45,805 bases of DNA from Enterobacteria phage vB_EcoS_Rogue1, in sequence record NC_019718.1. One strand, written 5' to 3'. The notes under the pieces were generated by a model. That model saw only the letters and a program-made list of their open reading frames with translations. It was not told the DNA's origin and did no database searches. Position 1 is the first letter of the stretch, and each line of letters opens with the position of its first letter. Shown here piece after piece: positions 3,387 through 41,851 of this stretch. The position numbers and the translations under genes were made by a program.

Positions 3387-3462
3387 GTTCTGCTGGCGTA
3401 ACAGGATAACGCAGAGACCTCCTAAGTCTCAGTTGCTGGTTCGAGTCCAGTGCGGAACACCA
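3387..3462 (+). tRNA. tRNA-Arg, anticodon CCU (reads AGG)
   Basis: Hand-folded cloverleaf: acceptor GTTCTGC/GCGGAAC (one G-U pair), D-stem GCGT/ACGC, anticodon stem GAGAC/GTCTC, loop CTCCTAA with U33 and A37, 4-nt variable loop, T-stem GCTGG/CCAGT, T-loop TTCGAGT, discriminator A, encoded CCA; 76 nt. Confidence 0.85.
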
Positions 3463-38271: not shown

Positions 38272-39405
38272 ATGGCTATAGCTAAAATCACCAACGAAGA
38301 GTTAAAGCAAGAACTGGCTAACGGTATGACTAACAAGGCAATCGCAGAGAAGTACGGTATGAATATTCGTAACGTAGAGCTGCGTCGCAGCAAGTTGGCT
38401 AAGGCTGGGGATGGTCACGGTCGCGATGTGAGTAACCTAATTCCTCAGGGCTACATGGTTAAAGGTGTATCTAGCCTTGTTGATAATGATGGCAATGTGA
38501 AGTTGCAATGGGTTAAGTCCTCTATTGATGCAGAGAAGCTTGAGGAGATGATGAATCAAGCGCGAGAGGCATTCTCTAGCGAGCTACCAAAAGAAAAAGC
38601 AGTTAAATCTGAAGGTCTGAATTTTGATGAAGATACTTTAGCTATGTATCCAGTATTTGACCTTCACATTGGCGCAATGGCCCACAAGCATGAGTGCGGA
38701 GAAAACTACGACACAGCAACGGCAGAGAAAGTAATGAACGATTATTTTGACTACGCCGTACAGAAATCTCCAAATTCAAAGAATGCTGTACTAGTGCTAG
38801 GAGGTGATCTGCTTCATTATGATTCTTTGGAAGCCAAAACTCCAGCCAGTGGTCACATCCTGGACAGTGACAGTCGCTACGCCAAGATTGTTTATGTTTG
38901 CATTCGAGCGGTTCGCCGCGCAATTCGAAACATGCTTAGCAAACATGAAAACGTAGAGGTTAAAGTTATATCTGGTAATCATGATGAAAGTGGTATGGTT
39001 TGGTTGCGGGCTGCGCTTGCTGCATTTTATGAGGAAGAGCCACGCGTTAGTATTGATGTTAGTCCCGCGGCAATGATGGTAACTAAGTTTGGTTCTACAA
39101 TGCTTGGTTTCACTCACGGGCATCAAATGCGTAAAGCTGATACTCGCCTTTCGGTTATGGCTACTGACTGGCGACGTGACTTTGGTTTAAGTGATTATGT
39201 ATACACCCACTCAGGCCACTGGCATTCACAGAAGATTACAGAGACAAATCTTGGTATTGATGAGGTTCATGGTCAGCTTGGTTCACCAGATGCATATAGT
39301 GCGAATGGTGGATGGCGCTCACAAAGGCAGGCCGCGGTAATCATCTATCATAAAGAGTTTGGTGAGGTTGGTCGCTTTATCTGCCGTCCAGAAATGTTCA
39401 AATAA
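38272..39405 (+). CDS. calcineurin-like metallophosphoesterase with N-terminal HTH-like region
   Basis: Motifs FDLHIG (D-x-H), GGDLLHYD (GD-x-x-D), GNHDE and GHWH in canonical order; N-terminal LKQELANGMTNKAIAEKYGMNIRNVELRR resembles an HTH. Confidence 0.7.
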   Translation: MAIAKITNEELKQELANGMTNKAIAEKYGMNIRNVELRRSKLAKAGDGHGRDVSNLIPQGYMVKGVSSLVDNDGNVKLQWVKSSIDAEKLEEMMNQAREAFSSELPKEKAVKSEGLNFDEDTLAMYPVFDLHIGAMAHKHECGENYDTATAEKVMNDYFDYAVQKSPNSKNAVLVLGGDLLHYDSLEAKTPASGHILDSDSRYAKIVYVCIRAVRRAIRNMLSKHENVEVKVISGNHDESGMVWLRAALAAFYEEEPRVSIDVSPAAMMVTKFGSTMLGFTHGHQMRKADTRLSVMATDWRRDFGLSDYVYTHSGHWHSQKITETNLGIDEVHGQLGSPDAYSANGGWRSQRQAAVIIYHKEFGEVGRFICRPEMFK

Positions 39406-39470: not shown

Positions 39471-39668
39471 ATGATTACAGAGATGATTTTAGTTGCAAGC
39501 CTTTCATCTCCATTGGTATCTCAACAGTATTGTGAACTTGGAAAAGAGATTTACCATGAAGGAGTGGAATTAAGAACGGTTGTTGATTGGCTTAATCACA
39601 GCACGATGAATATTGATGATAAAAAGATTGTCCTTGAGTGCTATATAGTGGAGTCAAATAAAGTCTAA
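39471..39668 (+). CDS. hypothetical protein (65 aa)
   Basis: ATG after AGGAA RBS. Confidence 0.45.
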   Translation: MITEMILVASLSSPLVSQQYCELGKEIYHEGVELRTVVDWLNHSTMNIDDKKIVLECYIVESNKV

Positions 39669-39711
39669 ATAGCACGAATTGCTAAAACGAAAATCAAAAG
39701 ATGGGGTATAG
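39669..39711 (+). promoter_or_regulatory. palindromic box TAGCA-CGAAT-TGCTA, 22-bp spacer, -10 TATAGT embedded in inverted repeat GATGGGG/CCCCATC
   Basis: Box centre is about 42 bp upstream of the predicted transcription start. Confidence 0.55.
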
Positions 39712-39744
39712 TTACCCCATCTAAACAAACGAGAGGATACAAAG

Positions 39745-39930
39745 ATGGCTAAATTCACACAATCAGATGCACAAATCGAAGTTAAAGATGTTGGTTTTGG
39801 TAAGACCTTTAAGATTGCGCAGGCATACGGCTCTAGCGAAGAAGATGTAAAAGTTGACACTATCAATCTTACTGCTAAGAATGCTCGTGAAATTGCCTAC
39901 GCAATCCTAGATGCACTTGGAGAGCGCTAA
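39745..39930 (+). CDS. hypothetical acidic protein (61 aa)
   Basis: ATG after GAGAGGA RBS. Confidence 0.5.
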   Translation: MAKFTQSDAQIEVKDVGFGKTFKIAQAYGSSEEDVKVDTINLTAKNAREIAYAILDALGER

Positions 39931-40118
39931 TGCTTCAAACAATTAAAGCCGACATGGTTAAGGTGGGTGATGAAGTTTTGTTCTTAAACTGCCCACCGCA
40001 GGTAGTTAAGGCTACAAGCCTTGAGTATTACCCTGGCTGTATTTTCGTAATGATTAAGACCATTGGTGGTAACTGCTTCCCAATTAATGTAAACACACTT
40101 ATTTGCGTAAACCGTTAA
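39930..40118 (+). CDS. hypothetical protein (62 aa)
   Basis: Coupled ORF (TAATG overlap). Confidence 0.45.
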   Translation: MLQTIKADMVKVGDEVLFLNCPPQVVKATSLEYYPGCIFVMIKTIGGNCFPINVNTLICVNR

Positions 40119-40130
40119 GAGATTATCAAA

Positions 40131-40304
40131 ATGACTAAATTATTCTGCGTTAGCAACAAATCAAAATCACTGCCTTTCACTGTAAACAACCCTTACAGTG
40201 GTGAGTACCAGGGGGATGGTAATTATAAGATTTATGGCGATGACATGACTTGGATCTTCGCTCCCATTGATGGAGAACTGGTGGAATTCATTATCGCAGA
40301 CTAA
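40131..40304 (+). CDS. hypothetical protein (57 aa)
   Basis: ORF below the track cutoff, found by manual translation; followed by a terminator. Confidence 0.35.
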   Translation: MTKLFCVSNKSKSLPFTVNNPYSGEYQGDGNYKIYGDDMTWIFAPIDGELVEFIIAD

Positions 40305-40331
40305 CTTATAAGAAACATCAACTTGCAAACA

Positions 40332-40356
40332 GGCGGCCTTTATGGCTGCCTTTTTT
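40332..40356 (+). terminator. rho-independent terminator
   Basis: GGCGGCC-TTTAT-GGCTGCC hairpin (one G-U pair) followed by TTTTTT. Confidence 0.6.
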
Positions 40357-40418
40357 CTTTTATGTCAAAGTTTAATATCTGGTATTATTTAATCAAATCA
40401 ACTTAAAGAGGCCGCAAC

Positions 40419-40634
40419 ATGAAGCATTTCTATGACGCAGCCGCCTTGTCCGGTAGCGGAGTAGCTATGGGTGGCGGTTTATCTGACAACACAATCATCG
40501 GCATTATTGGCTTAGTTATCGCCGTATGCTTTGGTATTTTTGGCGCATGGCTGCGCTGGCGTGACAGTAAGGCGCTCCATAAAGCACTTGAAGATGGGGA
40601 TATTCGAGAGGCAATGAGAATCAGGAGTAAATAA
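40419..40634 (+). CDS. holin (probable pinholin)
   Basis: 71 aa; Gly-rich weak TMD then strong TMD IIGIIGLVIAVCFGIFGAWL; charged C-terminus; directly upstream of a SAR endolysin. Confidence 0.55.
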   Translation: MKHFYDAAALSGSGVAMGGGLSDNTIIGIIGLVIAVCFGIFGAWLRWRDSKALHKALEDGDIREAMRIRSK

Positions 40635-41116
40635 TGAGCATTAAAAATAAGGTAATTGGTTCTGCTGTGGCTGGTGCCATGGCTCTGGCGGTTCCGTTCC
40701 TTAATGAGCATGAAGGCGTTGAGTGCAAGCCTTACAAGGATGTTGCTGGGGTATGGACTATTTGCGCAGGAATCACTGGTCCTGACGTTATTCTGGGCAA
40801 GGTTTACACACAGCGAGAGTGTGATGCACTACTTATGAAGCACTTGTCAATTCATCGTGCCGCTGTTGATAAAGCGTTAAAGGTTGATGTTCCAGTTAGC
40901 ACCAGGGCTGCCTTGTATAGTTTCTCATTCAACGTGGGAACTAATGCGATGCGCAAATCAACGGCAATGAGGAAGATTAATTCCGGAGATATCTATGGCG
41001 GTTGCAATGCCTTAAGGCTATTTAACAAGATTACAATTAATGGTAAAAAGGTTGTATCTAAGGGTTTGGATAATAGACGTGACGCGGAGGTGAAGCTATG
41101 CGTTTCGGAGTTGTAG
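40634..41116 (+). CDS. SAR endolysin (phage lysozyme, GH24-like)
   Basis: N-terminal signal-anchor-release segment (VIGSAVAGAMALAVPFL) followed by EGVECKPYKDVAGVWTICAG, resembling the catalytic E-x8-D-x5-T region of P21-type lysozymes. Confidence 0.75.
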   Translation: MSIKNKVIGSAVAGAMALAVPFLNEHEGVECKPYKDVAGVWTICAGITGPDVILGKVYTQRECDALLMKHLSIHRAAVDKALKVDVPVSTRAALYSFSFNVGTNAMRKSTAMRKINSGDIYGGCNALRLFNKITINGKKVVSKGLDNRRDAEVKLCVSEL

Positions 41117-41502
41117 TTCTGGCAATTATCTTGCTGACAGGGTGCTCTGCTATGTCAGCCATTTCTGATTTCTTACCAGCAAAGGATGGCGTAGAGGCAA
41201 CCGCGCAGGTTGGTGAGTCCAACCAGAAAACAGGAGTTGGATTGTCAAATCAAACAGACAAATCTAGCTCAACAGAAAGCGACATGCGCAACTCAACTAA
41301 CAGAGACGTAGATTCATCAAGCCAGAAAAAGACAGCCGCTACAGGACTATCAGCCAACACAATAACAGCTGAAAAGATTGAAATTCATAGCACTGAAAAT
41401 TCTGGCTTTGACTCTTTAGTCTGGGGTATTCTGGCTGGATTAGTTTCAGGTTTGCTAACTTACTTCGCTTTAAGATTCGCAGGAAACAAAAAAGGAGCCT
41501 AA
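41098..41502 (+). CDS. unimolecular spanin (N-terminal lipoprotein signal, C-terminal TMD)
   Basis: Lipobox LLTGC at the N-terminus; C-terminal TMD LVWGILAGLVSGLLTYFAL; overlaps the endolysin gene; architecture as in T1 gp11. Confidence 0.65.
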   Translation: MRFGVVVLAIILLTGCSAMSAISDFLPAKDGVEATAQVGESNQKTGVGLSNQTDKSSSTESDMRNSTNRDVDSSSQKKTAATGLSANTITAEKIEIHSTENSGFDSLVWGILAGLVSGLLTYFALRFAGNKKGA

Positions 41503-41517
41503 TGGCTCCTTTATTTT
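41494..41517. terminator. bidirectional rho-independent terminator at convergent junction
   Basis: GGAGCC-TAAT-GGCTCC hairpin flanked by AAAAAAA and TTTATTTT. Confidence 0.7.
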
Positions 41518-41851
41518 ACGCGAACAGTTGGTCGTCTGTCATTTCTTTTATGGTCATCATCTCATTGGTGTACTTATCACTCTCACCTCCGAGGCACCTA
41601 AAGCTAAAACCGAATGGTCGCTTCGTGCTTCCTTTGCTCCAGTAACTGCCATTAACTCCATCGATGTAACCTTCAGTCATGCATCTTGCCAGAAACTCCT
41701 TTGACGCAGATGATGCAAAGTAACGCGCATTAACTCCAGCTGCCTTAGCCATTCTTTCACATTCTTTGTGGCGGTAAATGAATACCGCCAGGTGCTGCCT
41801 GTTAAACTTTTCGTAGCTCTCGCAGAACTTGAACACATCAAGGATGAACAT
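41516..41851 (-). CDS. hypothetical protein (111 aa)
   Basis: ORF immediately downstream of the 530-aa gene on the minus strand. Confidence 0.5.
   Translation of the reverse strand: MFILDVFKFCESYEKFNRQHLAVFIYRHKECERMAKAAGVNARYFASSASKEFLARCMTEGYIDGVNGSYWSKGSTKRPFGFSFRCLGGESDKYTNEMMTIKEMTDDQLFA

Follow-up and report, generated by a model that had tools for sequence, protein, structure and literature searches.

We analysed a 45,805-nucleotide stretch of DNA from Enterobacteria phage vB_EcoS_Rogue1 (NC_019718.1), referred to here as the window, and found a compact lysis cassette at 40419-41502. The cassette consists of genes for a 71-aa holin, a 160-aa lysozyme predicted to be an endolysin of the signal-anchor-release (SAR) type, and a 134-aa protein predicted to be a unimolecular spanin (u-spanin) (Table 1). 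The first-pass annotation had placed three overlapping genes here, and the same limits were recovered, with both overlaps read directly in the sequence. The holin stop codon TAA (40632-40634) has one base in common with the ATG of the endolysin gene, giving an overlap of 1 nt. The ATG of the spanin gene (41098) lies inside the endolysin open reading frame (ORF), whose stop codon TAG occupies 41114-41116, giving an overlap of 19 nt. A Shine-Dalgarno sequence is present 6-7 nt 5' of every start: AAGAGG at 40406-40411 for the holin, AGGAG at 40623-40627 for the endolysin and GGAGG at 41086-41090 for the spanin. The holin matches phrog_2877 (E 2.7e-36), the endolysin matches phrog_7 (E 9.6e-54) as well as Pfam PF00959 (E 1.1e-34), and the 134-aa protein matches phrog_1804, named 'Rz-like spanin' (E 1e-46). 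On this sequence evidence, the three ORFs are real genes and not chance ORFs. With a terminator-like hairpin on either side, they look like a single compact unit whose genes are translationally coupled.

The lysis region of phage T1 (NC_005833, locus L003) served as the reference, and the proteins were compared pairwise. The holin is 37% identical to T1 gp13 across all 71 residues without a gap (E 2e-16), the endolysin is 50% identical to T1 gp12 (E 3e-55), and the 134-aa protein is 36% identical to T1 gp11 (E 2e-16). The cassette is very probably the late lysis module of a T1-like siphophage (Drexlerviridae, Rogunavirus), gene-for-gene orthologous to T1 13-12-11.

Table 1. The lysis cassette and flanking features in the window (position 1 is the first letter of the window).
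Feature	Position	Strand	Evidence
Holin, 71 aa, putative pinholin, T1 gp13 orthologue	40419-40634	+	phrog_2877, T1 homology, hydropathy, family alignment
Predicted SAR endolysin, 160 aa, GH24/T4-lysozyme fold, T1 gp12 orthologue, phage 21 R21 homologue	40634-41116	+	PF00959, PDB matches, T1 homology
Predicted unimolecular spanin, 134 aa, T1gp11 family	41098-41502	+	phrog_1804, T1 homology, AHS24 identity, conservation, hydropathy
SH3-like DUF7244 protein, 57 aa, T1 gp14 homologue, candidate accessory lysis component	40131-40304	+	PF23896, phrog_4788
Terminator-like hairpin, then TTTTTTCTTTT	40331-40351	+	terminator scan; fold -15.5 kcal/mol, z = -3.6
Candidate extended -10 element TGGTATTAT	40380-40388	+	pattern match, 31 nt 5' of holin ATG; weak inference
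Bidirectional terminator hairpin AAAGGAGCC-TAAT-GGCTCCTTT	41491-41512	both	terminator scan; fold

The third gene of the cassette encodes the 134-aa protein. Its N-terminus, MRFGVVVLAIILLTGC-S, is composed of Arg2, a hydrophobic core, the lipobox LTGC and a Ser residue at +2. Residues 1-15 (nt 41098-41142) make up the predicted lipoprotein signal, and the lipobox, with Cys16 at nt 41143-41145, stands behind MRFGVVVLAIIL. By the established rule, this Ser residue would direct the protein to the outer membrane through Lol sorting. The periplasmic region spans residues 17-106 and is followed by a C-terminal transmembrane domain (TMD), LVWGILAGLVSGLLTYFAL, at residues 107-125 (nt 41416-41472), with a Kyte-Doolittle (KD) hydropathy of 1.96 and a Wimley-White octanol value of -8.9. 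This is the only hydrophobic segment besides the signal, and a basic cytoplasmic tail, RFAGNKKGA, comes after it. In 20 spanin homologues, L13, G15, C16 and S17 are invariant, and a TAQxG motif and the C-terminal TMD are also conserved. Cys16 is the sole cysteine of the protein, and there is none in the periplasmic region, in agreement with the published finding that periplasmic cysteines are absent from u-spanins (PMC6139136). Thus, the N-terminal lipobox and the C-terminal TMD that the first-pass annotation had assigned to a single protein are both predicted in it.

Among the criteria for the T1gp11 family are an identity of 40% or more to a member, across no less than 40% of the length, a lipobox with a residue other than Asp at +2, and a C-terminal TMD with a short basic tail behind it. 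The 134-aa protein is 100% identical to the u-spanin of phage AHS24, and its MRFGVVVLAIIL-LTGC-S, for which lipidation is predicted, reads Ser at that position. Kongari et al. (2018) described a 28-member T1gp11 family that includes AHS24, Rogue1, JK06, RTP and T1 (PMC6139136, Table 5), and reported the AHS24 and Rogue1 u-spanins to be identical (PMC6139136). Because of the 100% identity to a listed family member, we read the likeness to T1 gp11 as orthology, that is, common descent, and not as an independent case of this architecture. All but two members of the family are located in cassettes with a pinholin and a SAR endolysin (PMC6139136).

Several GenBank records label the orthologue of this gene 'Rz1 protein'. 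If such a label were taken literally, the third gene might hide or need an embedded or overlapping Rz1-like lipoprotein of the outer membrane, which would make the system a two-component spanin, or its product might be a lipoprotein of another kind, for instance a Cor-like exclusion factor. However, in a six-frame scan of 40300-41700, the u-spanin gene was the only ORF in which a start codon is combined with a hydrophobic signal and a lipobox, and no embedded Rz1-like ORF was found. The sole internal ORF in the spanin gene (41210-41311) encodes 33 aa and has no lipobox. In addition, the 134-aa gene holds the last place in the cassette, and its product is a full-length homologue of T1 gp11, whose gene alone complements a lambda RzRz1 defect (PMC6139136). 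We therefore regard a hidden Rz1 or an unrelated lipoprotein as extremely improbable. The predicted structure is uninformative for the periplasmic part, a point on the other side. An AlphaFold2 model built with a 20-sequence alignment has a predicted local distance difference test (pLDDT) score of 56 and a predicted template-modelling (pTM) score of 0.22. Most of residues 29-92 have a pLDDT below 50, and the periplasmic region is disordered in the model. A helix is predicted at 102-132 and a strand of only three residues, so that the model does not confirm the beta-rich periplasmic domain predicted for the T1gp11 family (PMC6139136). Overall, the assignment of this protein as a unimolecular spanin of the T1 gp11 type, as proposed in the first-pass annotation in preference to an Rz/Rz1 pair, is very well supported by homology and predicted topology. 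The same annotation called the architecture rare, which stands in one respect only: a 2018 survey counted 58 u-spanins versus 528 two-component spanins (PMC6139136), but a homologue of the present u-spanin is encoded in 969 of 50,697 phage records.

The second gene encodes the lysozyme. Its best solved relatives are RrrD (PDB 4ZPU, E 3.5e-36) and R21 of phage 21 (3HDE, E 1.5e-35; 3HDF, E 1.4e-34). The HMMER alignment to 3HDE, which we take to be the membrane-tethered inactive conformation of R21, begins at query residue 9, within the N-terminal hydrophobic segment. The catalytic triad E27, D36 and T42 (nt 40712-40714, 40739-40741 and 40757-40759) has the spacing E-x8-D-x5-T, aligns with the R21 triad, and is invariant in an alignment with T1 gp12 and R21. 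The N-terminus, MSIKNK followed by VIGSAVAGAMALAVPFL, is weakly hydrophobic and resembles those of R21 and T1 gp12. It has an n-region with two Lys residues and an uncharged stretch of 18 residues (7-24) with a mean KD of 1.76 (about 1.9 over 15 residues) and a Gly/Ala/Ser/Thr content of 44%. We place the SAR segment at residues 7-23 (nt 40652-40702). The case for a SAR endolysin, as put forward in the first-pass annotation, is strong, with R21 homology, the conserved triad and a SAR-like, Gly/Ala-rich and weakly hydrophobic N-terminus all pointing to it. There is no Cys in residues 1-30, and because of this Cys-free N-terminus the enzyme is more likely of the R21 (refolding) type than of the P1 Lyz (disulfide-caging) type. 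The P1 Lyz structures 1XJT and 1XJU are also far weaker matches (E ~3e-5) than R21.

A point against the SAR assignment is the A17-L18-A19 motif before V20, which resembles an AXA site and could in principle be cleaved by signal peptidase I. With the n-region MSIKNK and a short h-region, the N-terminus might then be a cleavable Sec signal peptide, and the enzyme would be secreted in soluble form. However, the AXA motif is not conserved, as T1 gp12 has LTLT-P at the aligned position. In R21, the aligned N-terminal segment can be seen in crystal structure 3HDE, to which the HMMER alignment begins inside the segment. Its Gly/Ala-rich, weakly hydrophobic composition is also like that of known SAR domains. 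Moreover, a secreted active muramidase, if constitutive, would kill the host before assembly finishes. A cleavable signal peptide is thus quite unlikely, and we infer that the SAR segment stays uncleaved.

The first gene encodes the holin, for which the finer classification is less certain. One strong TMD is found at residues 25-45 (nt 40491-40553), with a G31xxxA35xxxG39 motif, and a highly charged C-terminal tail follows. Residues 7-22 (nt 40437-40484) form a weakly hydrophobic segment with a Gly/Ala/Ser/Thr content of 75% and a mean KD of 1.03. The first-pass annotation had described a two-TMD-like pinholin. In the phage 21 paradigm, the pinholin S21 has two TMDs (N-in, C-in), of which TMD1 is weakly hydrophobic and releasable and TMD2 lines the pore, and its nanometre-scale pinholes depolarise the membrane but are too small for folded endolysin. 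In the holin of the window, the TMD at 25-45 is clear and the protein is paired with a SAR endolysin; the first segment is short and weak, and no homology to S21 was detected. The pinholin label is the weakest part of the first-pass reading. The S21 sequence used in the comparison was validated by its strong PHROG matches.

Four observations weigh against the pinholin annotation. The putative TMD1 has just 16 uncharged residues, with Asp6 on one side and Asp23 on the other. The RefSeq record of the T1 holin states that it contains a 'single transmembrane domain'. No BLASTP alignment was obtained between the holin and S21, and hhalign gave a probability of 0.2% for the holin-family alignment against S21. 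Experimental work on a T1-type holin was not found in the literature searched. The sole link to S21 is a marginal co-linear match of the holin to phrog_20 (E 2.5e-4), a family that S21 matches at E 1.1e-32. Searches with the holin gave no match in the Pfam-A copy used, which lacks PF27028, a family precomputed for this holin, and, in a word-indexed protein search, only its own cluster. An exhaustive search of representatives yielded nine proteins and no S21-like match; all nine are T1-type holins except one long protein that aligned over the C-tail only.

Since residues 25-45 are the only unambiguous TMD, the 71-aa protein might be a holin but not a pinholin, either single-pass (N-out, C-in) or otherwise canonical. 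It would then make large lesions, and the resulting depolarisation would activate the SAR endolysin. P1 Lyz and its holin set a precedent for a SAR endolysin activated via a large-lesion holin. On the other hand, most members of the holin family have 42-44 contiguous uncharged residues, which leaves room for a helical hairpin. Measured on identical scales, the N-terminal segment is also no less hydrophobic than TMD1 of S21 (KD 1.15 vs 0.63), although it is shorter, and S21 TMD1 is known to exit the membrane. A pinholin would be expected to have such a size, a charged C-tail and a SAR endolysin as partner, and the T1-type holin has been called a class II pinholin in Young-lab and later annotations (PMC6139136, PMC4559738, PMC11447400). 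We consider a large-lesion or single-pass holin a less probable alternative that nonetheless deserves some weight. 'Pinholin' is a reasonable working annotation and probably the right one, drawn from the architecture and the SAR-endolysin partner and not from homology or experiment.

A dual-start (holin/antiholin) arrangement was also considered and rejected. There is an in-frame stop codon 15 nt 5' of the ATG, and the internal Met17 is not conserved, being replaced by Ile, Val, Phe or Leu elsewhere. The internal ATG at 40467, which encodes Met17, has a GGAG 5 nt 5' of it and would give a 55-aa product without the weakly hydrophobic N-terminal segment.

Phage 21 and T1 serve as paradigms from which a lysis pathway can be proposed. 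It builds on the anatomy and the homologies described above, and each of its dynamic steps is conditional. The 160-aa lysozyme would be exported by Sec and tethered in the inner membrane in an inactive state through its SAR segment. Meanwhile, the 71-aa holin would build up in the inner membrane until programmed triggering, when small lesions would collapse the proton-motive force. Upon depolarisation, the SAR segment would exit the bilayer, and the enzyme would refold to an active muramidase, with E27, D36 and T42 as its catalytic residues, and degrade the peptidoglycan. The 134-aa u-spanin would be lipidated at Cys16 and sorted to the outer membrane by virtue of its +2 Ser, with the C-terminal TMD remaining in the inner membrane. 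After loss of the peptidoglycan mesh, the u-spanin would become free to act on the outer membrane and disrupt it, probably through fusion with the inner membrane, and lysis would be complete.

We also examined the genes and signals that flank the cassette. Just 5' of the holin gene, outside the limits given in the first-pass annotation, lies a gene for a small SH3-like protein. The product matches PF23896 (DUF7244, SH3 clan) over its full length (E 3.5e-29) and phrog_4788 (E 3e-35), and T1 gp14 matches DUF7244 at E 8.8e-29. The protein lacks a signal sequence, and its gene is set apart from the holin gene by a terminator-like hairpin. According to a 2026 study, 188 of 522 Drexlerviridae genomes, most Rogunavirinae among them, have a standalone SH3-like gene adjoining the lysis cassette, and its authors proposed an accessory lysis role for it (PMC13164509). 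As a hypothesis, the SH3-like protein could be an accessory component of Drexlerviridae lysis. Two more novel readings, taken jointly, seem unlikely to us. In one, T1-type holins would be a pinholin lineage of independent origin from S21; in the Rogunavirus branch, the N-terminal segment would have shrunk to 16 uncharged residues between two Asp and might never insert in the membrane, leaving a constitutively 'TMD1-out', single-pass pinholin with timing set otherwise. In the other, the DUF7244 protein would be a genuine fourth factor in lysis, acting perhaps in the cytoplasm or periplasm to modulate the SAR endolysin or the timing of the holin.

The hairpin upstream of the holin gene has a counterpart in T1 at L003 6782-6808, between gp14 and gp13. 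A scan of 40352-40418 for standard sigma-70 -35/-10 elements detected no promoter. The TGGTATTAT pattern was tried as a holin promoter and rejected as statistically indistinguishable from chance: it is not enriched in the window, with 5 matches against 2.6 expected. At the other end, the bidirectional hairpin covers the final spanin codons and the stop codon, and is common to a convergent gene on the - strand (41516-41851). It folds at -15.4 kcal/mol (z = -5.0) on the + strand and at -14.3 kcal/mol (z = -3.7) on the - strand, and its T1 counterpart is at L003 7971-7992. The terminal u-spanin codons, AAA AAA GGA GCC (KKGA), form the hairpin, whose loop contains the stop codon, and T1 is alike in this respect. 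The conserved KKG(A/Q) C-terminus of the spanin family may be constrained by RNA structure besides topology. The convergent gene encodes a 111-aa protein that belongs to phrog_2794 (unknown function), is called 'YdbL' in relatives, and has no Pfam match. On the 5' side, a DNA-repair exonuclease gene at 38272-39405 marks a conserved module boundary. Between it and the SH3-like gene, three small ORFs (65, 61 and 62 aa) are found at 39471-40118 on the + strand, matching only PHROGs of unknown function (phrog_19819, 7411 and 10052). The last two are labelled 'transcriptional regulator' and 'signal peptidase I' in the phage UDF157lw record, and no Pfam match supports either label.

At the DNA level, the lysis region is 99.8% identical to those of Escherichia phages vB_EcoS-BECP10 and UDF157lw, 98.9% identical to those of AHP24/AHS24, and 92% identical to that of JK06. 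The taxonomy given for UDF157lw is Drexlerviridae; Rogunavirinae; Rogunavirus, and the remainder of the window shows 96-98% identity to the same Rogunavirus group. Bases 1-24000 are closest to JK06 (96.3%, 94% covered), and bases 24001-45805 to UDF157lw (98.2%) and AHP24/AHS24 (96.9%). By these alignments, the window appears to hold nearly all of a mosaic Rogunavirus genome and belongs to an established lineage of T1-like coliphages. A single tRNA-Arg gene (anticodon CCT) is located at 3387-3462 on the + strand, and the same is reported for AHP24, AHS24 and UDF157lw. In addition, about 20 records titled 'Campylobacter phage' (for example, MG065649.1 and MG065670.1), each of ~48-50 kb, encode a T1-type holin with 48-50% identity to that of the window. 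These records have the appearance of T1-like Drexlerviridae genomes to which a Campylobacter host was assigned, and may be contaminants or reflect an unusual host range.

The combination of a pinholin, a SAR endolysin and a u-spanin is the published annotation of T1-like lysis cassettes (PMC6139136, PMC4559738, PMC11447400, PMC13164509), and the same three-part annotation has been given for Sushi, TLS and KanT1/T1 (PMC4559738, PMC11447400, PMC13164509). The core lysis module is present in 508 of 522 Drexlerviridae genomes (PMC13164509). Because this combination has been published, the exact u-spanin has been catalogued, and near-identical genomes are already annotated with a holin, a lysozyme and a spanin, the cassette is already known, and the reading of it is correct but ordinary for this phage family. 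The value of the present analysis is confirmatory, in that the membrane-topology signatures are recognisable from raw sequence, and the loose database label 'Rz1 protein' can be corrected to 'u-spanin'.

Among Rogunavirus phages (AHS24, AHP24, UDF157lw, BECP10, JK06 and Rogue1), the lysis region is 92-99.8% identical with essentially no difference there, and only the labels of the orthologous spanin vary, being 'Rz1 protein', 'putative spanin' or 'Rz-like spanin' depending on the record. T1 has the same gene order, with product sizes of 71/162/133 aa compared to 71/160/134 aa in the window. In both phages, the cassette is preceded by the SH3-like DUF7244 gene and a hairpin, and the spanin stop codon lies within a terminator hairpin. 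They differ in the lipobox, which is LTGC in the window and LSGC in T1, and in the overlap between the endolysin and spanin genes, which is 19 nt in the window and 1 nt in T1. Furthermore, an HNH endonuclease gene lies 5' of the SH3-like gene in T1, whereas the three small ORFs occupy this place in the window.

The resemblance to phage 21 is confined to part of the cassette. The endolysin is 46% identical to R21. Both enzymes share the E-x8-D-x5-T triad, have no Cys in the SAR segment and are partnered by a small holin (71 aa in the window). In contrast, S21 has no detectable homology with the holin of the window, and phage 21 uses a two-component Rz/Rz1 spanin where the window cassette has a one-piece spanin. 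Lambda Rz/Rz1 has the same inferred function as the u-spanin, that is, linking the inner and outer membranes and disrupting the outer membrane after peptidoglycan degradation. However, lambda divides this function between two proteins, whereas in the window one polypeptide is predicted to combine a lipid anchor for the outer membrane with a TMD for the inner membrane. Compared to lambda Rz/Rz1, the spanin of the window has no embedded gene, no periplasmic cysteine and no sequence similarity.

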